A DNA stretch of 64,000 bases. It comes from Acidobacteriota bacterium. Lineage in GTDB: Bacteria > Acidobacteriota > UBA890 > WLXD01. Below the pieces are notes generated by a model. It ran no database searches and had not been told where the DNA came from. It saw only the letters and a program-made list of their open reading frames with translations. Of the stretch, positions 5,181 to 18,746 are shown piece by piece (positions within the stretch are counted from its first letter, which is position 1; the number at the start of each line of letters is the position of its first letter). The position numbers were made by a program, and so were the translations under genes. The stretch lies in NCBI GenBank assembly GCA_965248695.1, contig CBDFKD010000002.1, positions 3,968,001-4,032,000 on the forward strand, written 5' to 3'.

Positions 5181-6107
5181 TCAGAAGCGTGAGATGACGA
5201 TGCGAAACCCGATGAACGCCCGGCGCGCGCCAGGGTCGACACCGCCACGGACGGTCGTGCGGATATTCTGTTCCGGATCGCCGAAGTGCCCGCCGCGCAT
5301 GACCCAGAGGGCGTCCGCATCGAGGTCGTCGAGGTCGTCGGTCGGATCGAAAGGATACGGCTGGTAGCGGCTGCGCGTCAGCTCCCACAGGTTGCCGCTC
5401 ATGTCTGCAAGGCCGTACGGACACTCCGGACAGTCAAAGCTGCCGACCGGGGCGGCGGCCGCGCCGCGATAGTTCGCCCGTGACGGGTTCGGAAAGTTCC
5501 CCCATGGGTAGATCCGTGCGTCGGTACCGCGCGCGGCCTTCTCCCACTCCGCCTCGCTCGGTAGCATGACCTGCCCTCCCCGACGCAACAGTTCGCCGAG
5601 TGACGGAGGCGTCTCCGGCCATGCCCTCAGCGTGGCGTCGAGCCATCGGCAATAGGCGAGCGCGTCCGGCCACGAGACCCACGCTACGGGGTGGTCGGGA
5701 GGCGCCCGTATGGCTCGCGCGTCGACCACGTACCCGGTGTTTTCTACGAACGATCGGAACTGCGCCACGGTGACCTCGAAGCGACCTACGTAGTAGTCAG
5801 GAAGCTGCACGGTTCCGTAGGCGCTCCTGGTGCTCCAGCGCTCGTTGTCGAAGGCGAGCGCGTCGACTGCCGCCTCGCCGCCCATGACGAACTCACCGGC
5901 GGCGATCTCTACGAAGCCCAGGAGCTCGTCATCCGGTAGAAACCAGGCATCGGCGCGAAGCCCGGCGACGGCGGCCGAGGTGCTCACTCCGGAGCCATCT
6001 CCGATATCACTCGCGGAGGAGGCCCCCGACGGGGCTTGCTGGCAGGCGGCCGCAACGACGAGCGATGTGGTCACAGCCGCCCGCTGGAGCCCCGTGCACC
6101 GCGTCAC
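5181..6107 (-). CDS. FGE-sulfatase (SUMF1/PvdO-type) domain lipoprotein
   Basis: Motifs F.MG, FEVTVAQF, HPVAWVSW.DA.AYC.W, LPSEAEWEKAARG, GLADMSGNLWE, RGG and GFRIV. Lipobox-like VAAAC. GTG 6107 overlaps the upstream stop (GTGA); ATG 6125 is an alternative start. Confidence 0.85.
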   Translation of the reverse strand: MTRCTGLQRAAVTTSLVVAAACQQAPSGASSASDIGDGSGVSTSAAVAGLRADAWFLPDDELLGFVEIAAGEFVMGGEAAVDALAFDNERWSTRSAYGTVQLPDYYVGRFEVTVAQFRSFVENTGYVVDARAIRAPPDHPVAWVSWPDALAYCRWLDATLRAWPETPPSLGELLRRGGQVMLPSEAEWEKAARGTDARIYPWGNFPNPSRANYRGAAAAPVGSFDCPECPYGLADMSGNLWELTRSRYQPYPFDPTDDLDDLDADALWVMRGGHFGDPEQNIRTTVRGGVDPGARRAFIGFRIVISRF

Positions 6108-7630
6108 GGCGAGGTCTCGTTGCATGCGAAGGCCCAATTGTGCCGGCAGGCGCGCGCCAACAGGTCCGCATCCGACATCTCGAGCAGATTCTCGCCGCCC
6201 TCGCGCAGCAGAAGCCTCAGATCGAGGGATCGTGGATCGGTGCCGTGAGATCCGTCGGCATCCAGCAGGTTGAAGCACGCCGGCAGGTAGCGGAGCTCAC
6301 AGGCGCGCGAGAAGAAACCCAACGCGGCCTCTGTGTCGCGCTCCAGAATCGCACCGGCCCTGTTGTGCAGCCCCAACTCGTTGCAGGCCCAGGCCGAGTT
6401 GTCGGCACAGTATGAGGATTGGATCTGCAGCAGGCGATCACAGCCGTCATGACGACCCTCGACGCAAGCTCGTTGCCAGAACGGCAAGGTGTCGCCAGGG
6501 TGCGTTCCGTCGGTCGATCCCAGCGCCGCCATGGCGCCGAAGAAAACGATCCAGACGGCGATGTGGGTGGAATTCGCGCCCAGCGGATCCCATCGAACCC
6601 GATACCGTCCGGAGAGCCGTTCTTCCGCCAGTCGCGCCAGGCGGTCGATTCGCTGCACGCTCAGGTTCAGCAGCGGCACGCAAAGCAACTTGTCGTAAAA
6701 GGTCGGCGCCCCGAACGCTCCCAGCAGGGCGTAGAGACCGAATACGCCCAGACCATAGAGCATTCCGAATAGGGTCTTGCCGAGCGGCGTTCGCGGCGAA
6801 GTGGACGGATCGGTCACCAGCAGGTGAAGGCCGAGAAAGACCGCGGTCGGGATCTCGGAATCAACGAAATACGGGATCCCCGTCCACCCCCAGTACAGCG
6901 CGCTCATCGCGAACAGCGAGACGGCGGCCGATCCGGCAACGAGCGTGATCGCGAAGAAGTGCATCACCACCAAACCGAGGAGAAACAGGAACAGGTAGAT
7001 CTGCGGCGCCAGTGTCAACGTGGTCGCAATATCCTGCCCCCATGTGATGTCGGTGGTGTCGGTGGCGAGCAGAACGAGGGAGAACAGCCCGAGAGAAAAT
7101 GCCGACGGGTTGAAGATATGAGTTCGCGTCCCGTCTCGGCGCCACCGCACGAGCTCCTTGCCGAGGAACCCGGCCCCGATCATCAGGAACTGCAGTGCGA
7201 ACCAGTCGTCCTTGAACCAGAGGAACAGATTGGTGCTGAATACGACGGGCAGCGGACCGAAGCCGAGCAGGTAGGTATCGCGCCGCGACCAGGCGAGCAG
7301 CATGTCGAACGCGTAGGCGAAGACGAGCTGTGCGATCAGCAGCCAGGCGTAGTCGAATACGGGTCGCCAGTAGTAGCCCCAGTAGGCGAAGACCGCCAGC
7401 TGCACCGCTGCCTGGATGTAGTGCTGCGGCCGCAATAGCGGTCGCAGCCGCGGCTCAATGCCGGCGCGATGAGTCCGTACGAAGAGGCACGCCTGCCATA
7501 CCAGCAGCAACAGCGCCGCGCCCCAGAACGAGCGAGCGAGCGCAGGGCTGTCGCTGATGCGTGGCACCAGCGACAGGAGCAAGATCGTGACTGCCAGCGC
7601 CAACGGCACGCCGAAAGCCCCCCGCGACAT
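6104..7630 (-). CDS. Stand-alone RnfD/NqrB-like (UnbU-like) polytopic membrane protein with C-terminal Cys-rich Sel1-like repeats
   Basis: About 12 hydrophobic segments. GK...HIFNPS and LLVTDPSTSP resemble the RnfD/NqrB FNPA and TDPVTSP motifs. The tail has repeated C.....AC units (WACNELG, FSRACEL, ACFNL). Confidence 0.65.
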   Translation of the reverse strand: MSRGAFGVPLALAVTILLLSLVPRISDSPALARSFWGAALLLLVWQACLFVRTHRAGIEPRLRPLLRPQHYIQAAVQLAVFAYWGYYWRPVFDYAWLLIAQLVFAYAFDMLLAWSRRDTYLLGFGPLPVVFSTNLFLWFKDDWFALQFLMIGAGFLGKELVRWRRDGTRTHIFNPSAFSLGLFSLVLLATDTTDITWGQDIATTLTLAPQIYLFLFLLGLVVMHFFAITLVAGSAAVSLFAMSALYWGWTGIPYFVDSEIPTAVFLGLHLLVTDPSTSPRTPLGKTLFGMLYGLGVFGLYALLGAFGAPTFYDKLLCVPLLNLSVQRIDRLARLAEERLSGRYRVRWDPLGANSTHIAVWIVFFGAMAALGSTDGTHPGDTLPFWQRACVEGRHDGCDRLLQIQSSYCADNSAWACNELGLHNRAGAILERDTEAALGFFSRACELRYLPACFNLLDADGSHGTDPRSLDLRLLLREGGENLLEMSDADLLARACRHNWAFACNETSP

Positions 7631-7663
7631 CGCCAGGTTAGACCGGGCTCCCACCACTGCCTG

Positions 7664-8641
7664 CTAGTCGGTACAGTCCTCGGCGTCCCCATGCCGACCG
7701 GCGCGAGCCATGCGCGCCCACAGCGACAGGTCGGCCTCGGTTAGGAAGTGCCATATGAGGCGCGCCCACGAGTCGTGGCTGCCGAGCGAGTCGTAGTACT
7801 CCGGTGCAATGGCGGTGATCTGCGGCAACCGGTTCCACGGCACCGAGGTGAAGTCGTGGTGCTCGTTGTGATAGCCGACGTTGCAGGCCACCCAGTTCAG
7901 CTTGCCGTAGTAGCTGAACGTCTCCTGGGTGTCGGAGTCGACCATGTAGTGCTCCTGGATCCAGCGTGCGCCCAGGGGATGCAGTCCAACCGCGAAGAAC
8001 AGAGAAGCCAGCAGATACAGGAATGCTCGTGGGCCCCACGCCCAGATCACCAAGGCATCGATGGAAAAAACGATTGCCCAGTCGACGAGGGTCCATCGTG
8101 TCAGGAACGCCATCTGCTTGATGCGCAACGGGCGAAGTGCTTGCACCACCGGGAATAGCGTCAACCAGATCAGCTTGCGGAAGAACGAGTTGCCTACCAG
8201 TCGCGCTTCCCAGTAGCTGGGTATGTCGGCGTCCACTTCGTGCACGCCCTGATGCGAGTGGTGTATCAGGTGATACGAGCGAAACGACATCGCCGTCGGC
8301 ATCGTGTTCACCGCGCCCGCGAGGATGGCGGAGAGATTGTTCGCCCAGCGCGACCGGAAGATCAGCCCGTGGGTGGCGTCGTGAACCATGACGTAGCTTG
8401 TATGGTTCGCGAAGGCGCCGAGGCAGTAGGCGACGATTCCGATCAGCCACCACGGGCTGTCACGCAGCATCCAGGCGACCGTGAACTGCGCCGCGACGAT
8501 GCCGAGGATGATCGCGAAGGACCAGGGATTGCGCCCGATGAGATCGCGCATCTCGGGATGGTCGAGCAGGATCGCCCGGGTACGGCCGTGATGCGGTTCG
8601 CACTCTTTCGAGTGCCGGAAATCGTCCGCGGTCTGCGCCAA
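7664..8641 (-). CDS. Sphingolipid delta-4 desaturase/C4-hydroxylase-like (DEGS1/DES1-like) membrane di-iron desaturase
   Basis: His boxes HDATH, HLIHH and HNEHH. N-terminal DF...EPH..R..IL..HPE...L.G (Lipid_DES-like). Also DADIP, FRKLIW, GLHP...I.EHY, ETFSYYGKLN...NVGYHNEHHDF and IAPEYYD. Likely TTG start at 8641 with GGAG upstream. Confidence 0.88.
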   Translation of the reverse strand: MAQTADDFRHSKECEPHHGRTRAILLDHPEMRDLIGRNPWSFAIILGIVAAQFTVAWMLRDSPWWLIGIVAYCLGAFANHTSYVMVHDATHGLIFRSRWANNLSAILAGAVNTMPTAMSFRSYHLIHHSHQGVHEVDADIPSYWEARLVGNSFFRKLIWLTLFPVVQALRPLRIKQMAFLTRWTLVDWAIVFSIDALVIWAWGPRAFLYLLASLFFAVGLHPLGARWIQEHYMVDSDTQETFSYYGKLNWVACNVGYHNEHHDFTSVPWNRLPQITAIAPEYYDSLGSHDSWARLIWHFLTEADLSLWARMARAGRHGDAEDCTD

Positions 8642-8718
8642 GCGCAAAGCTCCGGGTGAAGGGGAAAGGCCCGGTAGCCGTCCGGACGTCGGCAGCCTAG
8701 CGTCCGCAGTGGCCAGCG

Positions 8719-9569
8719 TCAAAACAATACAGCACACCGCGACCCGGGGTCGAGATGCTCCTGTAGCCCACTGCCGAGCATGTTGGTGGCCCAGACGACA
8801 ACGACGATCGTCAGCCCCGAGAGGTTGGCGATCCATGGCGCGACCCACAGCTGATCACGACCCTCGGCCAGCATGTTGCCCCAGGTCGCCGCTGGCGGCG
8901 GCACTCCCAGGCCGAGGAAGCTGAGGGCGGTTTCCTGCAGGATCACGTGCGCTACCTGCAGCGTGGAGACCGCCGCCAGCACTGGTAGTAGGTGCGGGAA
9001 GATGTGGCGGGACAGGATGTAGAGGTCACCGGCACCCTGCGCCACGGCCGCCTCGACGAAGGCGCGTTCCTTCAATGCCCGGGTCATGCCGAACGTGACG
9101 CGCGCGTAGACCATCCATCCAGACACTCCCAGCACGATGATCAGATTGAGGGCGCTGCCGCCGATCGCTGCGACGATCAGAATCGCCAGCAAGATGTCGG
9201 GCATCGCGAGGTGCGCATCGGCGAGGCGCATGATGAGCTGCTCGGTCTTGCCGCCGCGATAACCGGCGATCATGCCCAGCGCGGAGCCGAACAAGCACGA
9301 CAGCAGCATCGCCGCGAAGCCGACAAGCATCGAGATTCGAGCCCCGTAGATGAGCCGAGAGAAAAGGTCACGCCCGTAGTTGTCGGTGCCCAGCAGATGT
9401 GTCGCCGAGCCGGTGGAATACCAGGATGGTGGCGCAAGGCGGTCCAGCAGCGCCTGCTCGTCGGGATCGTGGGTCGCCGCGTAGGGGGCGAGGAGCGCCG
9501 CCAGCAACGCCAGTGCCACGATGCCGCCGCCCACGCTGATCTTGGCGTTCCTAGAATGCGCCGCGGCAT
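8719..9569 (-). CDS. Peptide/nickel ABC transporter permease (DppC/OppC type); apparent 1-nt frameshift near the 5' end
   Basis: HLLGTDNYGRDLFSRLIYGARISM, EAA motif FVEAAVAQGA, and ETALSFLGLG...WGNML. ATG 9569 (GGAG RBS) is out of frame; one extra G at ~9550 gives MPRRILGNAKISVGGG. Confidence 0.85.
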
Positions 9570-10503: not shown

Positions 10504-11631
10504 CTAGACGACGAGGATCTCCTCGTTGTCGAAGAACCCGGTGCGGACGATCGGCGCCCCGTCCGTGATCTCGACGAGATCCTCCATGTGCAATCCGTAC
10601 TCGCCCACCCAGCGGACGCGCGTCTCGACGGTCGACATCATGCCGGGCTGATAGACGATCTCCTCGTGCGGGCTGATCAGCGGATGCTCATGAACCTGCA
10701 GCCCGATGCCGTGTCCGTTGTGCCCGAGCGGGAACGGGATTCCCGCCTTCTCATACAGCTCGGCGGTGCGCTCGAACAGCTGGCGGCCGCTGTTGCCCGG
10801 CCTGAGCATGTCGATGATCTCCCAGTGGATCTCGCGTAGCCGTTTCCACCAGGACTCCTCCTCATCCGTCGTCTTGCCGAGCTTGGCGGTACGTCCGACG
10901 TTGGAGTGGTACTCGCGATAGTAGGCACCGACGTCGGTCTTGATGATGTCCCCCTGCTTCACACGATAGGTGGAGGGATGCATGTGCGGATACCCGGTGT
11001 TCGGGCCCGCGTTGAGAAGATTGAAGGCTATGGCGTCGGCACCCGAGCGCAGGATGGCATCGACCAGACGGCGGGACATGCTGCGCTCGGATTCGCCTTC
11101 CTGCACCGTTGCGTAGGTGCCCAGCAGAGCCTTCTCGGTGCCGCGAAACGCGTCGATCAGGATCTCGCGCTCGCGTGGCGTCTTCACCATCCGCACGTGA
11201 GCAAACAGATCGGCGCAGGGTTCGATGCGCAGCTCGGGCAGCTCTCGGGTCAGCTGCGCGTGGTACTGGACGCCCAGGTATTCGGTATCGGCGCCGATCC
11301 GTGCCTTGGCGAGGCCCAGCTCCGTGAGCACCTCGGCCAAGAGCTCGATGGGCGAGACGACGAACTCCTTGTACGGGCGCAGGTCCTGGATCCAGGATTC
11401 CTGCCGCATGTAGGCCTCTTCGATCTGGCACAGGACGTAGACGGGGTCGCTGCCCGACGGCCAGACGATCAACCCCAGTCGGTCGCGGATCACGTTGTGG
11501 GTGGCGATCGGTGCGTCGGTGACATACCGCAGGTTCTCCGGCGACATCGCCACGACGGCGTCGAAGTCGCTTTCGTCGATGGCCCGGCGCAGTCCTGTCA
11601 GATCGCCGATAGCGTCCTCGATCGTCTTCAT
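10504..11631 (-). CDS. M24 family Xaa-Pro peptidase/creatinase-like hydrolase
   Basis: Starts MKTIEDAIG with an ATGA overlap on the binding-protein stop. Motifs SPENLRY, RMVKT..E, TDVG, YHSNVGRT, GHGIGLQVHEHP, TVE and MEDLVEIT. Confidence 0.88.
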   Translation of the reverse strand: MKTIEDAIGDLTGLRRAIDESDFDAVVAMSPENLRYVTDAPIATHNVIRDRLGLIVWPSGSDPVYVLCQIEEAYMRQESWIQDLRPYKEFVVSPIELLAEVLTELGLAKARIGADTEYLGVQYHAQLTRELPELRIEPCADLFAHVRMVKTPREREILIDAFRGTEKALLGTYATVQEGESERSMSRRLVDAILRSGADAIAFNLLNAGPNTGYPHMHPSTYRVKQGDIIKTDVGAYYREYHSNVGRTAKLGKTTDEEESWWKRLREIHWEIIDMLRPGNSGRQLFERTAELYEKAGIPFPLGHNGHGIGLQVHEHPLISPHEEIVYQPGMMSTVETRVRWVGEYGLHMEDLVEITDGAPIVRTGFFDNEEILVV

Positions 11632-13134
11632 GACGGCGGGCTCAACGTCGTCTTGTGGAGTCGCAGCACCTTGTCGGTTGGTGGCTGCCAGCCCGTGACC
11701 CGGCGGCTCTTGGCATAGATGCTGGGCAGCGAGAACAGGAAGATCGCCGGAGTTTCCTCGTGCATGATCTCCATCATCCGCCGGTAGATGCGACGGCGGG
11801 CACCTTCGTCGATCGTCGATCTCGCCTGCAGGAAGAGCTCTTCGTATTCCGCGTTGTACCACAGCGCCCGACCGCTTGCCTCGGTGAACCACACGGTGGC
11901 GAAGTCGGCATCGCCGAGGCTGTACCAGCCGACCATGTGGATCGGTCCGAGCTCCCTGGCGAGCACCATCTTGGAGAACACGCCGCCCTCCACCACGTTG
12001 ATCTTCGCTGCGATGCTCACCTTGTCGAGCATGCCCGAGACCGCGTTGGCGATGTAGACATCGGAGACGTACTTGCTGGCGCGCGTCGTGATCGAGGTCG
12101 CGAACCCGTTCGGGTAGCCGGCGCCGGTCAGTAGGTCGCGCGCGCGCGGGATCGTACGGTCGGGCGCTGAGTGCGGGGTTGTGTCCCGGTGTGCTCTCGG
12201 GGAGCAGTTGCCCGTCCAGTAGGCTGCCGCTGCCGCGCAGCAGGGCCTCGCGGATCAGCGGCTTGTCGATGGCGTGGTCGAGGGCGACCCGCACTGCTCG
12301 GTCATCGAACGGTGGTCTGCGAGTGTCCAGCGTCAGCACCAGCGCCACCGCTGATTCCACCGGCGCTACCTCCAGATCGGCAGCTTCCTCCACCCGCGGG
12401 ATCAGGTCGACGGGAAGCTCCTCGATAATGTGGGTCTCATTGGCCAGCAACGAGGCAAGGCGCGTGGAGGACTCGGGAATCTGCCGAAACACCACCCGTT
12501 CGATCCGCGGCGCGCCGCCCCAGTAGCTCTCGTTAGCGGTCAGCTCGTAGCGATCTCCCGGCTCCCAGCGCGCGAAGATGAACGGCCCGGTTCCCATCGG
12601 GCGCTGGGTGCGCTCCTGTTTCGTGGTCTTCTCGTGATAGTGGCGCGCCTCGATCGGTATGTCCGAGAGACCGAGCGTCAGCGTTGGAAACGGACCATCG
12701 GTGCGCAAATCGATGGTGTGCTCGTCGACGATCGTGATCGTTTCGAGCTGCTCGATGCGCCGCCGGCCGGTGTGGATCGAGGCCGGGTCGAGCACGTACT
12801 CGAGCGTGTGCTTGACGTCGGCGGCGGTGAAGGGCATGCCATCGTGGAATGTGACGCCGGGTCGAAGCTCGATCCTCCAGGTGGTGTCGTCGACGGCCTC
12901 CCACGACACGGCGAGTCCCGGCCGCAGGTTGCCCTGGTCGTCGCGCTGGATCAGCGGATCCATCGTCTGATAGGCGAGACTGAGGCCGGCGAAGCTGGTG
13001 GCGCTACCCTCGAGCGACTCGGGAAAGACCGCGGTGGCGACGACGAGCGTGTCGGACGATGCGGTGACGACAGAGCACCCCACCAGACCGAGGTTCAGCA
13101 TGAGGAGAACGAGGCGAGTCTGCAGGCTGGTCAT
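11628..13134 (-). CDS. ABC transporter substrate-binding lipoprotein (SBP family 5), frameshifted at ~12140
   Basis: Lipobox LVGC; PGLAVSW, LRPGVTFHDG.PFTAADV, PMGTGPF and VRVALDHAID. The C-terminal part (DLLTGAGYPNGF...MLDKV...HEETPAIFL) is in another frame and is joined by restoring one CG unit at 12137-12148. Confidence 0.85.
12137..12148. repeat. (CG)6 dinucleotide tract coinciding with the SBP frameshift
   Basis: The sequence reads cgcgcgcgcgcg; (CG)7 would restore YDPARARDLLTGAGY. Confidence 0.75.
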
Positions 13135-13318
13135 AGGACGCATCGCCGTGGTGAAGGGGACCCGATTGCACCGCGATTAATCAGCGTGGTCAAGGTCGTT
13201 GGCGGCCACGTGGTGCGGTCGTTGCAGCATCGTTGAACTTCGGCGACGGGTGTGGTCATGTGGTCGATCTCTGGCCCGAATGATGCCGGTCAATGCGATG
13301 AGGAGCGTCCAGGACATC

Positions 13319-14584: not shown

Positions 14585-15045
14585 TGGGCGCCCCATCGTC
14601 CGAGGCGGCGTCAGATCGCGAGCCAACACCGTCGGCGGCAGGCCGCGAGGCTCTGCTGAAGCTCGTGCTGCGGGTCATCGGCGGTTTCTCGCTGTTGGCG
14701 CTGATCTTCGTGGTGGCGCCGTACAGCTGGATGAACACGATTCACGACCGGTGGCTCGGTATGGGAGAGCTCTCGAGCCAGCCGGTGGTCGGCTACCTGG
14801 CGCGCTCCACGTCGGCTTTCTACGCGCTGCTCGGTGGGCTGTTGATCTTGGTCTCCCGCGATCCGCGAGCGTATCGTTCGGTGCTCCTGTACCTCGCCTG
14901 GGCAATCATGGCCCTTGGCGTGGCCCTGTTCTTCATCGACCAGGCCGAGGGGCTACCGCCACCCTGGAGCCTGTGGGAAGGCCCGTTCGTCGCGGCGTTC
15001 GGCGTGCTGGTTCTTTGGCTGACGCGTACGCTTGGCGAGGAATAG
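14584..15045 (+). CDS. Hypothetical 4-TM membrane protein
   Basis: TGATG coupling with the oxidase gene; four hydrophobic helices. Confidence 0.7.
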   Translation: MGAPSSEAASDREPTPSAAGREALLKLVLRVIGGFSLLALIFVVAPYSWMNTIHDRWLGMGELSSQPVVGYLARSTSAFYALLGGLLILVSRDPRAYRSVLLYLAWAIMALGVALFFIDQAEGLPPPWSLWEGPFVAAFGVLVLWLTRTLGEE

Positions 15046-15085
15046 GCTGCCGTTGATCCGATCTGAATTCTCGAGGGAGGCTCTG

Positions 15086-17056
15086 ATGAATCCGCACCGC
15101 ATCGATGGCCGGACACCTGCAACAGAGCGAACCACCCTGGTCCGAGTGCCGATCGTCGTTTCCCTGGCAATCGGGATGCTGGTCTCCGCCTGCGCGGCGG
15201 AGGTGCCCACTCCTCCAATGGAGGTCGCAACCTACGATATCGGCGCGTTTCTGGACACCACGAACTATCGAGGTGCTTCGTTCTCGCCCGACAACTCGAG
15301 CCTGCTGGTGAGCACCGACCAGACGGGCATCTTCAACGCCTTTACGTTGGCAGTGGACGGCTCGGGTGGGGACCAGCTCACAAGCTCGAGTACGGACTCT
15401 GTCTTCGCGCTCGGCTATTTCCCCGACGATGAGAGAATCCTTTACGGCGCCGACCAGGGGGGCAACGAGCTGCGACACCTGTACGTGCGCGATCCCGATG
15501 GTGCGGTGACCGACCTCACCCCGGGGGAGGAGCACATCGGTAACTTCGCCGGCTGGGCGGGCGACAACGAGTCGTTTTACGTATCGAGCAATGAGCGGGA
15601 CCGCCGGTTCTTCGATGTGTACGAATACGACGTCAATACCTACGACCGTGAGCTGATTTTCGAGAACGAGGGGTTCTTCCCGGCCGGGAGCTCGAACGAC
15701 GGGCGTATGATCGCGCTGGCGAAGATGAACACCAACGCCGACTCCGACGCGCTGGTCTATGATCGCGACACCGGCGAGCTACGCAACCTCTCGGCACACG
15801 AGGGCGATATTTCCAATTCGCCCGCCGATTTCACTCCGGACGATCGCGGCCTGCTGGTGCTCACCGACGACGGTGCCGAGTTTGCCTACCTGGTTCGTTA
15901 CGATCTGGAGACCGGCGCCCGGGAAGAGATGCTGCGCGCCGACTGGGACATCTCCTTCGCGGCCTACTCGCGCGGTGGCACATATCTGGTGGTCGGAATC
16001 AACAACGACGCCCGTACCGAGCTACGCCTGTACGAGGCCGCGACGATGGCGCTCGTCGAGCTGCCTGATCTCGGTGACGCCGAGATCAGCTCCGTGTCGA
16101 TCTCGCGCGATGAGCAACACATGGCGTTCTACTCCTCATCAAGCCGTGCGCCGCGCGATCTCTTCTACTATCGACTCGGCGCCGACGCACCGGTTCAACT
16201 GACCCGCTCGCTCAACCCGAACATCGACCCCGACCATCTGGTGGACGGAAGCGTCAAGTGGTTCGAGTCGTGGGACGGTCTGGAGGTTCCGGGCATTCTC
16301 TACAAGCCCCATCAGGCCAGCCCGGACAACAAGGTGCCGGCCCTGTTGTGGGTGCACGGCGGTCCCGGCGGCCAGTCGCGCATCGGCTACTCCGGACTGA
16401 TCCAGTACGTGGTCAACCACGGCTACGCGGTATACGCGATCAACAACCGCGGTAGCTCCGGGTATGGCAAGACGTTCTTCCACCTCGACGATCAACGGCA
16501 CGGTCACGACGACCTCGACGATTGCGTCGCCAGCAAACGAATGCTGATCGACACGACCTGGGTCGATCCCGACCGGATCGGCATCCTCGGAGGTAGCTAC
16601 GGCGGCTACATGACCCTCGCCGCGCTCACCTTCCGACCGGAAGAATTCACCGTTGGCGTGGATCTGTTCGGCATATCCAACTGGGTACGGACGCTCGAGA
16701 GCATTCCGCCGTGGTGGGAGGCGCAGCGCGCCATGCTGGAGAACGAGATGGGCCCGTTCGACGACCTGGACACCTTCCGCGCCAAGTCGCCGCTGTTCCA
16801 CGCCGACCAGATCGTCCGACCGCTGATGGTGCTCCAGGGAGCCAACGATCCGCGCGTGGTCAAGGCGGAATCTGACGACATCGTCGAGGCGGTGCGTGAG
16901 AACGGTGTGCCGGTGGAATATGTCGTGTTCGATGACGAGGGTCACGGGTTCGTCAAGAAGGAGAACCAGGAGGAGGGGTATCGGAAGATCCTCGAGTTCC
17001 TGGAAACCCATCTGCGCGGCGCGGCTGCCCCAGCGTCCGACCGGGCGACGGGGTAA
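15086..17056 (+). CDS. S9 family (acylaminoacyl/prolyl oligo-) peptidase, lipoprotein
   Basis: GGAGG RBS and lipobox VSAC. Beta-propeller N-domain, VHGGPG, and catalytic triad GGSYGG / GANDPRV / DEGHGF. Confidence 0.93.
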   Translation: MNPHRIDGRTPATERTTLVRVPIVVSLAIGMLVSACAAEVPTPPMEVATYDIGAFLDTTNYRGASFSPDNSSLLVSTDQTGIFNAFTLAVDGSGGDQLTSSSTDSVFALGYFPDDERILYGADQGGNELRHLYVRDPDGAVTDLTPGEEHIGNFAGWAGDNESFYVSSNERDRRFFDVYEYDVNTYDRELIFENEGFFPAGSSNDGRMIALAKMNTNADSDALVYDRDTGELRNLSAHEGDISNSPADFTPDDRGLLVLTDDGAEFAYLVRYDLETGAREEMLRADWDISFAAYSRGGTYLVVGINNDARTELRLYEAATMALVELPDLGDAEISSVSISRDEQHMAFYSSSSRAPRDLFYYRLGADAPVQLTRSLNPNIDPDHLVDGSVKWFESWDGLEVPGILYKPHQASPDNKVPALLWVHGGPGGQSRIGYSGLIQYVVNHGYAVYAINNRGSSGYGKTFFHLDDQRHGHDDLDDCVASKRMLIDTTWVDPDRIGILGGSYGGYMTLAALTFRPEEFTVGVDLFGISNWVRTLESIPPWWEAQRAMLENEMGPFDDLDTFRAKSPLFHADQIVRPLMVLQGANDPRVVKAESDDIVEAVRENGVPVEYVVFDDEGHGFVKKENQEEGYRKILEFLETHLRGAAAPASDRATG

Positions 17057-17126
17057 CCGGGCGACGGGGTGACGCTCGAGGCTTCGCCGGCACGGCGACG
17101 TGTATGGACCATCTGACGAGGACGAG

Positions 17127-18746
17127 ATGCGACGACGCGACTTTCTGCGCCATTCGCTAGCCGGAACCGTAGCCGTGGCCTCGAGCGTGCCCCAGAGCCG
17201 AGCGGCAGCTGCGACCCACAGTGCCCATGTCGGTGAACAGCAGAGCGCCGACGTCGTCGTCGAGGAGGTCAGCGTGCGCGACCTCCAGGCTCAGATGGCC
17301 GCCGGGCGATTCAGCGCCGAGCAGCTGGTGCGAACGTACCTGGATCGGGTCGAGTCGATCGATCGTGCCGGCCCGACTCTGAACTCGATCATCGAGGTGA
17401 ACCCCGACGCGCTGCCGATCGCTCGGAGCCTCGACGGGGAGCGTGACGCGGGGCAGGTACGTGGACCTCTCCACGGCATCCCGGTGGTGATCAAAGACAA
17501 CATCGACACCGGCGACCGGATGCTGACCACCGCCGGTTCTCTGGCGCTGGTGGATGCGCCGAGGCCGCGTGACGCGTTCATCGTCGAGCGCCTGCGCGAG
17601 GCCGGCGCGGTGTTGCTCGCCAAGACCAACTTGAGCGAGTGGGCCAACATGCGCTCGACGCGCAGCAGCTCGGGATGGAGTGGTCGCGGTGGCCAGACCC
17701 ACAATCCGTACGTGCTCGATCGCAGCCCCTGCGGATCGAGCTCGGGCTCGGGTGCTGCGGTCTCGGCCAGTCTGGCCGCTCTCGCCATCGGCACCGAGAC
17801 CGACGGCTCGATCGTCTGCCCAGCGAGCGCTTCCGGGATCGTCGGCATCAAGCCGACGCTGGGGCTGTGGAGCCGCGGCGGGATCATTCCGCTGGCCCAC
17901 AGCCAGGACACCGCCGGGCCGATGGCGCGGACGGTTGCCGACGCAGCGGCGCTGCTCGGTGCACTGACCGGGGTCGACCCGAACGATCCGGATACCGAGG
18001 CCTCAGCCGATCACCGTCGGGCTGATTACACTCAGGCCCTCGACGCCGACGGACTGCGGGGCGCCCGAATCGGCGTCGTGCGTGCCTTCTTCGGGTTCCA
18101 CGAGCGTGTCGATGCGCTGATGGATCGTGCGATCGAGGCGATGCGGCAGGCAGGCGCAGTGATCGTAGATCCGGTCGAGATCCCGAACACCGACAAGTAC
18201 CGGGATACCGAGAACGAGGTCCTGCTGTACGAGCTCAAGGCCGACATGGGGGCCTACCTGGCGGCGCGCGGCGGCAGGATGCAGAGCCTCGCCGACCTGA
18301 TCGCCTTCAACCAGGAGAATCGCGACCGCGAGATGCCCTACTTCGGCCAGGAGCTGTTCGAGATGGCCCAGGCGAAGGGGCCGCTCACCGAGCAGGCGTA
18401 CCTCGACGCGCTGGCGAACAACCGGCGCTACGCCGGGCCCGAGGGTATCGATCTGGCACTGGGTGAGCATCGCCTCGACGTGCTCGTGGCGCCCACCGAC
18501 GGTCCCGCCTGGCCCATCGACCTGGTGACTGGCGACCACTTCCTTGGGGGAAGCTCCAGCCCTGCCGCCGTCTCCGGCTATCCCAGCATTACGGTTCCGG
18601 CAGGCAATGTCTTCGGGCTACCTGTAGGGATCTCGTTCATCGGACCGGCATGGGGTGAGCCCACGCTGATCCGACTGGCGTACAACTACGAACAGGCGAC
18701 TCGCCACCGCGCGGCGCCAGCGTTCCTGCCTAGTCTGCCGCTTTGA
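17127..18746 (+). CDS. Amidase signature family enzyme with Tat signal
   Basis: MRRRDFL; GPLHGIPVVIKDNI, KTNLSEWAN, GSSSGSGAAV and GTETDGSIVCPAS (Ser-cisSer-Lys triad). Confidence 0.93.
   Translation: MRRRDFLRHSLAGTVAVASSVPQSRAAAATHSAHVGEQQSADVVVEEVSVRDLQAQMAAGRFSAEQLVRTYLDRVESIDRAGPTLNSIIEVNPDALPIARSLDGERDAGQVRGPLHGIPVVIKDNIDTGDRMLTTAGSLALVDAPRPRDAFIVERLREAGAVLLAKTNLSEWANMRSTRSSSGWSGRGGQTHNPYVLDRSPCGSSSGSGAAVSASLAALAIGTETDGSIVCPASASGIVGIKPTLGLWSRGGIIPLAHSQDTAGPMARTVADAAALLGALTGVDPNDPDTEASADHRRADYTQALDADGLRGARIGVVRAFFGFHERVDALMDRAIEAMRQAGAVIVDPVEIPNTDKYRDTENEVLLYELKADMGAYLAARGGRMQSLADLIAFNQENRDREMPYFGQELFEMAQAKGPLTEQAYLDALANNRRYAGPEGIDLALGEHRLDVLVAPTDGPAWPIDLVTGDHFLGGSSSPAAVSGYPSITVPAGNVFGLPVGISFIGPAWGEPTLIRLAYNYEQATRHRAAPAFLPSLPL

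Follow-up and report, generated by a model that had tools for sequence, protein, structure and literature searches.

Why should a bacterium carry a gene that looks like the one with which eukaryotes complete their ceramides, and on what lipid would its product work? The question is raised by a single gene in a 64,000-nucleotide stretch of DNA from an Acidobacteriota bacterium (GTDB lineage Acidobacteriota; UBA890; WLXD01; assembly GCA_965248695.1, contig CBDFKD010000002.1, positions 3,968,001 to 4,032,000 of the forward strand), the whole of which we call the window. An earlier note, made by reading the window letter by letter, had taken this gene for a dihydroceramide desaturase of the DEGS1/DES1 type (here, DES). 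We have tried to follow that suggestion outward, from the gene to its genome and from the genome to the bacteria at large, and the role that we now think probable, though well short of certain, is an O2-dependent reaction at C4, a desaturation and/or a hydroxylation, on dihydroceramide that the cell has made itself.

The gene itself, at 7664-8641, is intact, and the genome that holds it measures 5.89 Mb in 2 contigs and is 96% complete. Its reading frame, closed on the reverse strand by a stop that ends at 7664, is open as far as 8848 and would give 394 amino acids if read from a GTG; the TTG at 8641, which was the start chosen in the earlier note, gives a desaturase of 325 amino acids, and in an alignment of bacterial homologues the relatives share this start position. 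Two Pfam domains are found in the product (Table 1): the FA_desaturase domain and, ahead of it, Lipid_DES, an N-terminal domain by which sphingolipid delta-4 desaturases are recognised as a family and of which a whole-genome scan returned a single match, at this very gene (G000:C2:3976522-3976629 in genome coordinates). The three histidine boxes follow the pattern HX3H, HX2HH and HX2HH in a DES1-type context, and all eight of their histidines are invariant in the bacterial homologues aligned (17 of 17). According to Table 2 of a paper on rice DES1 (PMC6923433), the core of box 3, VGYHNEHHDF, is identical in H-box 3 of the rice enzyme, and the residues around boxes 2 and 3 agree with the ones given there for the rice DES1 subfamily; the corresponding boxes of a peanut delta-4 desaturase are quoted in PMC5731756. 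The motifs on which the earlier note had relied all stand in the translation: EPHHGRTRAILLDHPE, DADIP, FFRKLIW, GLHPLGARWIQEHY, ETFSYYGKLNWVACNVGYHNEHHDF, IAPEYYDSLGSHDSW and ARMAR.

Could this nevertheless be some generic desaturase of acyl lipids or fatty acids, with nothing but the His boxes in common with DES1? Some of its relatives do carry the plain name "fatty acid desaturase" at NCBI, and the FA_desaturase domain is itself a generic one, and still we hold this explanation to be very improbable. The Lipid_DES match is over its cut-off. A BLASTP alignment with a protein of the nematode Gnathostoma, named sphingolipid 4-desaturase in UniRef, runs from end to end (118 identities in 314 positions, or 38%, with E 1e-75 and 2% gaps), and it is collinear throughout, window residues 3-314 lying against residues 5-315 of the nematode protein; the likeness to DEGS1 does, as had been claimed, extend beyond the His boxes. 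The NCBIfam models for bacterial desaturases, ketolases and hydroxylases (DesA, CrtW and CrtR included) reach at most 25 bits on the window protein against cut-offs of 350-500, and it is therefore not one of these named bacterial enzymes. Finally, the trees described below place it inside the DES family.

The nematode is not alone among the eukaryotic relatives. In a representative library of 1.84 billion proteins, the window desaturase found 2581 clusters at E <= 0.001 (1320 at <= 1e-10 and 398 at <= 1e-30), and the 20 chosen clusters for which source names were looked up include six named eukaryotes: a mollusc (DES1-like), two nematodes, a choanoflagellate, a green alga and a diatom. The DES1-like isoform of Mya arenaria is 41% identical to the window protein. 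Five of the six carry Lipid_DES and FA_desaturase as a pair, the exception being the mollusc isoform, which is shorter at its N terminus and has FA_desaturase only. This is the architecture of eukaryotic DES1/DEGS1, known from animals, plants and fungi, and of the bifunctional desaturase/C4-hydroxylase DES2/DEGS2; eukaryotic DES1 is also of about the same length as the window protein, and neither has a fused cytochrome b5 domain, although the window protein stands on a separate, purely bacterial branch. Judged by sequence, then, the likeness to eukaryotic DES1 is much too strong to be due to chance, and the protein belongs genuinely to the DES1/DEGS family; on this the earlier note, which had set it apart from the generic fatty-acid desaturases, was right.

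What of the surprise that such a gene should be found in a bacterium at all? Here the earlier note, which had presented the gene as eukaryote-type and unusual for its host, does not stand. A scan of prokaryotes at one genome per species gave at least 594 matching stretches, 591 of them confirmed, so that the family is carried in at least 591 species genomes from many phyla, and because of these carriers the gene is no oddity of this acidobacterium. The best 80 loci come from Acidobacteriota (63% identity), Gemmatimonadota, Ignavibacteria, many Bacteroidota, Planctomycetota, Kiritimatiellota and others, and among the carriers are cultured organisms: Puia sp. P3, Chitinophaga filiformis, Taibaiella chishuiensis and Parasediminibacterium. 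A word-indexed protein search gave 5037 matches at E <= 0.001 among 7476 candidates; both domains are present in 119 of the 120 best, and many of these relatives already bear the JGI names "sphingolipid delta-4 desaturase" or "sphingolipid 4-desaturase/C4-monooxygenase." An ESM Atlas search for the family gave only bacterial clusters. The family is nonetheless patchy close to home: Lipid_DES is found in 12 of 301 sampled genomes of the Acidobacteriota (11 of them over the cut-off), in 5 of 10 sampled genomes of the same family, and in 3 of 4 of the same genus.

The trees tell the same story. We built a quick IQ-TREE tree of 50 rows and a FastTree tree of 138 rows from family members only; there are no outgroup desaturases, both trees are unrooted, and they are for that reason silent on the direction of gene transfer. 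In the IQ-TREE tree, the 17 named bacterial rows, the window desaturase among them, form one branch with a support of 91 in the Shimodaira-Hasegawa-like approximate likelihood ratio test (SH-aLRT), which lies within a set of 22 rows supported at 95. Five of the six named eukaryotes fall beyond a split from the bacterial rows with an SH-aLRT of 98%; the sixth, the diatom, is placed with the bacterial half, where its neighbors are rows without names. The FastTree tree has the same two halves. These trees put the window protein, in other words, inside the DES family and on its bacterial branch, with no outgroup to say more, and the gene is one unremarkable member of a large bacterial branch that is annotated but uncharacterised, rather than a eukaryotic intruder. 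Phyla are intermixed within that branch, which suggests horizontal transfer or mis-binning. As an aside, the DES of a metagenome-assembled genome (MAG) labelled Azovibrio restrictus, a betaproteobacterium, groups with those of Taibaiella and Parasediminibacterium, which are Bacteroidota, at 100% support and with short branches; either the gene was transferred recently or the contig was mis-binned.

An enzyme of this family would need a substrate, and a second question is whether the cell could make one. The bacterial route to ceramide, as described in PMC11087976, uses enzymes of three classes: Spt, an acyltransferase called bCerS, and an NDUFA9-like reductase called CerR. The co-location of the three genes serves in PMC11334938 as the criterion for a potential sphingolipid producer. 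The earlier note had called for a search of the genome for spt, bcerS and cerR, and an Spt-like, bCerS-like and CerR-like trio is indeed present, as an operon (Table 1). Of the NCBIfam models, serine palmitoyltransferase suits the Spt-like protein best, ahead of bioF and Kbl, and its place in the operon speaks for Spt as well. Directly downstream of the Spt-like gene, and on the same strand, is the bCerS-like gene, whose product of 379 amino acids has no Pfam or NCBIfam match of its own; its relatives contain the GNAT domain PF00583 and go by the name of GNAT-superfamily N-acetyltransferases. The CerR-like gene follows immediately, with an Epimerase domain (PF01370, 96.8 bits), and encodes an NAD-dependent epimerase or reductase of the short-chain dehydrogenase/reductase (SDR) class. 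Because a true DES1/DEGS member is found in a genome that has this trio, action on endogenous ceramide is the best reading of the gene.

Beside the operon (G000:C2:2680082-2684813) lie genes for an MlaC/HpnM-like lipid-binding protein, an outer-membrane efflux protein and a divergent MMPL-family transporter; the three are candidates for the movement of ceramide to the outer membrane.

The nearest described system is that of Caulobacter crescentus, in which a pathway of Spt, bCerS and CerR (PMC11087976, PMC11324152) consists of the three enzyme classes that the operon here would also encode. As published, a pathway of the Caulobacter type ends at dihydroceramide and is without an enzyme for C4 of the long-chain base, whereas the genome of the window adds DES; a review likewise contrasts the dihydroceramide that bacteria produce with eukaryotic ceramide (PMC10191378). 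The only desaturase-family enzyme that PMC11324152 mentions in connection with Caulobacter sphingolipids is a DesA-family hydroxylase that acts on the amide-linked acyl chain, not on C4 of the long-chain base.

The same operon bears on another explanation, put forward in the earlier note, which is that the enzyme remodels sphingolipids acquired from host or prey organisms. The sole point in its favor is the resemblance to eukaryotic enzymes, and we give it hardly any weight: with a putative de novo ceramide pathway present in the form of the genome's own operon, the scavenging of host lipids becomes unnecessary, the carriers are (by their record titles) mostly free-living lineages of soil, sediment and water, and the bacterial copies keep to a branch of their own, unlike recent acquisitions from a host.

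If DES works on ceramide that the cell has made, then the gene should be found in the company of ceramide genes, at least at the level of genomes. We counted the bCerS-like gene, at E <= 1e-10, in the same 301 genomes of the phylum, and it is present in 87 of them. All 12 genomes with Lipid_DES fall within these 87, each with a bCerS-like match of E <= 1e-48; among the 214 without the bCerS-like gene, Lipid_DES is found in none. In four of five other DES-bearing Acidobacteriota the acyltransferase homologue is directly beside the Spt-like gene, and in the fifth, an assembly of 370 contigs, the two are on different contigs. Three cultured DES-bearing Bacteroidota, Chitinophaga filiformis and Taibaiella chishuiensis among them, have the acyltransferase homologue beside an Spt that scores 708-730 bits on a model whose equivalog cut-off is 640. 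There are also two of the 80 loci where DES itself comes close. In a MAG of the Kiritimatiellae (L064, 3880-6933) the bCerS-like gene, the CerR-like gene and DES stand in a row on one strand, and in a Gemmatimonas MAG the DES gene is convergent with a cluster of ketoacyl-synthase, GNAT and alpha-oxoamine-synthase genes.

The Kiritimatiellae cluster has blemishes of its own: at a conserved position, the reading frame of its acyltransferase is broken by a stop, and its DES has no ATG, GTG or TTG before the conserved N terminus. These may be assembly errors, signs of a decaying cluster or unusual starts.

How might the enzyme work? The AlphaFold model of the desaturase is of good quality, with a predicted local distance difference test score (pLDDT) of 83 and a predicted template-modelling score (pTM) of 0.83. 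Its best fold matches in the PDB are a chain of the chloroplast Orf2971/Ycf2-FtsHi complex (8xks_K, TMq 0.62, and 8xqw_M, 0.60) and the alkane hydroxylase AlkB (8sbb_A, 0.54); stearoyl-CoA desaturase is a weak match. With AlkB and the Orf2971/Ycf2-FtsHi chain the model shares the His-box membrane di-iron class of fold, although these proteins are only 15-17% identical in sequence, are without Lipid_DES and have other substrates. A sequence search of the PDB returned no desaturase and 7 matches at the level of chance, and the fold search returned no DES1/DEGS entry. The His boxes and the fold together imply an O2-dependent di-iron enzyme, in which the eight histidines of the three boxes would hold two iron atoms. 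Each turnover would use O2 and two electrons, and the attack, to judge by homology, would come at C4 of the long-chain base of N-acyl-sphinganine (dihydroceramide), the substrate being, as we infer, the cell's own ceramide from the Spt-like, bCerS-like and CerR-like operon. A second hydrogen might then be removed at C5 to leave a 4,5 double bond, or the hydroxyl might rebound to give the 4-hydroxy (phyto) form; which of these, delta-4 ceramide, phytoceramide or both, would be the product cannot be told from the sequence.

The electrons pose a problem of their own. Eukaryotic DES enzymes draw them from cytochrome b5, and no match to the cytochrome b5 domain PF00173 is found in this 96%-complete genome, because of which the donor should differ from the eukaryotic one. 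Another carrier, for example a protein of the ferredoxin or flavodoxin type, might take its place.

There are good reasons to be cautious about all this, and they should be set out together, as points that count against the action of DES on a ceramide made by the cell. One is the silence of the literature: a search from whose coverage most subscription journals were missing found no characterised bacterial homologue of DES1/DEGS, and the 14 papers in it that mention Lipid_DES or PF08557 deal, to go by their titles, with eukaryotes or with other matters. Others concern the operon. The Spt-like protein, which comes from a genome with 28 matches to PF00155 (5 of the top-scoring ones were scanned with NCBIfam), reaches 434 bits on NF047600, more than on bioF (388) or Kbl (367) but under the equivalog cut-off of 640. 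The acyltransferase is a candidate that we call bCerS-like from its class and context. CerR is periplasmic in Caulobacter (PMC11087976), and if the same were true here, it would put in question the membrane face on which DES meets dihydroceramide; DES might, to speculate, act before the reduction or after a flip. Still others concern the co-occurrence. Because the over-cut-off cases of Lipid_DES belong to four families, the 12 genomes amount to about four independent lineages and not twelve, and because just 12 of the 87 bCerS-like-positive genomes carry DES, it would be an accessory step. DES is unlinked to a ceramide operon in 78 of the 80 loci, as it is in the genome of the window, where the two are 1.3 Mb apart. 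And in Puia sp. P3, which has DES, the acyltransferase (1.2e-27) and Spt (291 bits) are both matched only weakly.

The last of these points would suit an explanation in which the chemistry is the same and the lipid is another long-chain amino alcohol or amide: a 1-deoxyceramide, a base of the sulfonolipid type or some other N-acyl amino lipid. Puia, with its weak bCerS-like and Spt matches, is what one might expect of it. The DES family is abundant in lineages of Bacteroidota, environmental bacteria make many ceramide variants, 1-deoxy and sulfono forms included, according to PMC11334938, and DES keeps no conserved neighbor: when the 1582 open reading frames (ORFs) around the 80 loci were clustered, no family was found at more than 7 of them. 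Against this must be put the 12 Lipid_DES genomes of the phylum, all of them bCerS-like-positive, and the two genomes in which DES is next to bCerS-like genes; nor did a sulfonolipid pathway turn up in the genome, where none was searched for. We regard another substrate as unlikely, if by some distance the most serious of the alternatives, and we continue to favor the dihydroceramide of the cell itself.

Why should any of this matter? A conserved DEGS-type gene nested among putative producers of ceramide leads one to expect one more tailoring step, dependent on O2, in bacterial sphingolipids, and in lipidomics of the environment or of hosts the C4-modified lipids so predicted would pass for eukaryotic ones. 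A far bolder proposal is that it was the bacterial branch, rather than a eukaryote, from which the eukaryotic ceramide desaturase arose, and that hundreds of bacterial species, this acidobacterium included, make 4-unsaturated or 4-hydroxylated ceramides independently of b5; we offer it as a long shot. If it were true, then the statement that bacteria stop at dihydroceramide would be wrong, and the final step of eukaryotic ceramide synthesis would be of bacterial origin, its earlier steps having converged (eukaryotic CerS and KDSR are non-homologous to the upstream pathway of the Spt, bCerS and CerR type; PMC11087976). Small bacterial homologues that would do without b5 should be useful for the biochemistry and the structure of the DES family, and the cultured carriers (Chitinophaga filiformis, Taibaiella chishuiensis and Puia sp. 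P3) make the prediction directly testable. It is the family as a whole that merits the experiment; the copy in the window adds little to its case.

Table 1. Positions of the desaturase gene, its parts, its downstream neighbor and the ceramide operon (window positions, except where genome coordinates are given)
Feature	Position	Strand	Remarks
DEGS/DES1-family membrane di-iron sphingolipid C4 desaturase/hydroxylase gene (predicted)	7664..8641	-	325 aa; TTG start, TAG stop
Shine-Dalgarno-like GGAG	8650..8653	-	Read from sequence; 8 nt upstream of the desaturase TTG start
Lipid_DES (PF08557) domain, residues 5-40	8522..8629	-	Pfam 38.4 bits vs cut-off 23; 2-37 of 37 model positions
FA_desaturase (PF00487) domain, residues 63-284	7790..8455	-	Pfam 102.3 bits vs cut-off 29.7
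His box 1 HDATH, residues 87-91	8369..8383	-	H87 and H91 invariant in 17/17 aligned
His box 2 HLIHH, residues 124-128	8258..8272	-	Context FRSYHLIHHSHQGV; compared with rice DES1 H-box 2 (PMC6923433 Table 2)
His box 3 HNEHH, residues 258-262	7856..7870	-	Context NVGYHNEHHDF; invariant His in alignment
Downstream polytopic membrane protein, 517 aa	6104..7657	-	Weak RnfD/NqrB-like match (22.5 bits, below cut-off); Cys-rich Sel1-like C-terminus
Spt-like / bCerS-like / CerR-like operon	G000:C2:2676578-2680031	one strand	1.3 Mb from the desaturase
Spt-like alpha-oxoamine synthase	C2:2678733-2680031		Best NCBIfam model NF047600 (serine palmitoyltransferase)

The immediate surroundings of the desaturase gene have little to say about lipids. 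Upstream is the permease of an Opp-type ABC transporter, ending at 8719, and farther out (1004-2359 on the reverse strand and 15032-18746 on the forward strand) the setting is one of peptide degradation, with a Kelch-repeat protein, an M20 peptidase, an Opp-type ABC transporter, an S9 prolyl oligopeptidase and an amidase; none of these peptide-degradation genes is tied to lipid metabolism.

Downstream is the gene for the membrane protein with the Sel1-like C terminus, whose real start is likely the ATG at 7630; from the desaturase stop to this ATG there are about 33 nucleotides and no terminator. One might take such a neighbor for an operon partner of DES, since it adjoins DES in all three genomes of the same genus, and we tried this idea and rejected it: the gene is absent from the DES loci elsewhere (0 of 80), two further genera of the family that carry DES did not yield it, and its own much larger, highly conserved family is tied to an FGE-sulfatase gene. 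We read the adjacency as local gene order, and the protein is probably no partner. That larger family gave 6053 matches, the best 120 of them at 65-90% identity, and one relative, of 796 amino acids, is a fusion with an FGE-sulfatase domain, which the next gene of the window also encodes. The membrane protein gene and then the FGE-sulfatase-domain gene occupy 5181-7657 on the reverse strand, and relatives of the membrane protein are numerous in Acidobacteriota, which suggests a conserved two-gene module.

A last observation concerns 10504-13143 on the reverse strand, a single ORF of 879 amino acids in which SBP_bac_5 (residues 73-336) is followed by Creatinase_N and Peptidase_M24 (517-861); either a peptide-binding protein has been fused here with an Xaa-Pro-type peptidase, or two genes are being read through as one.

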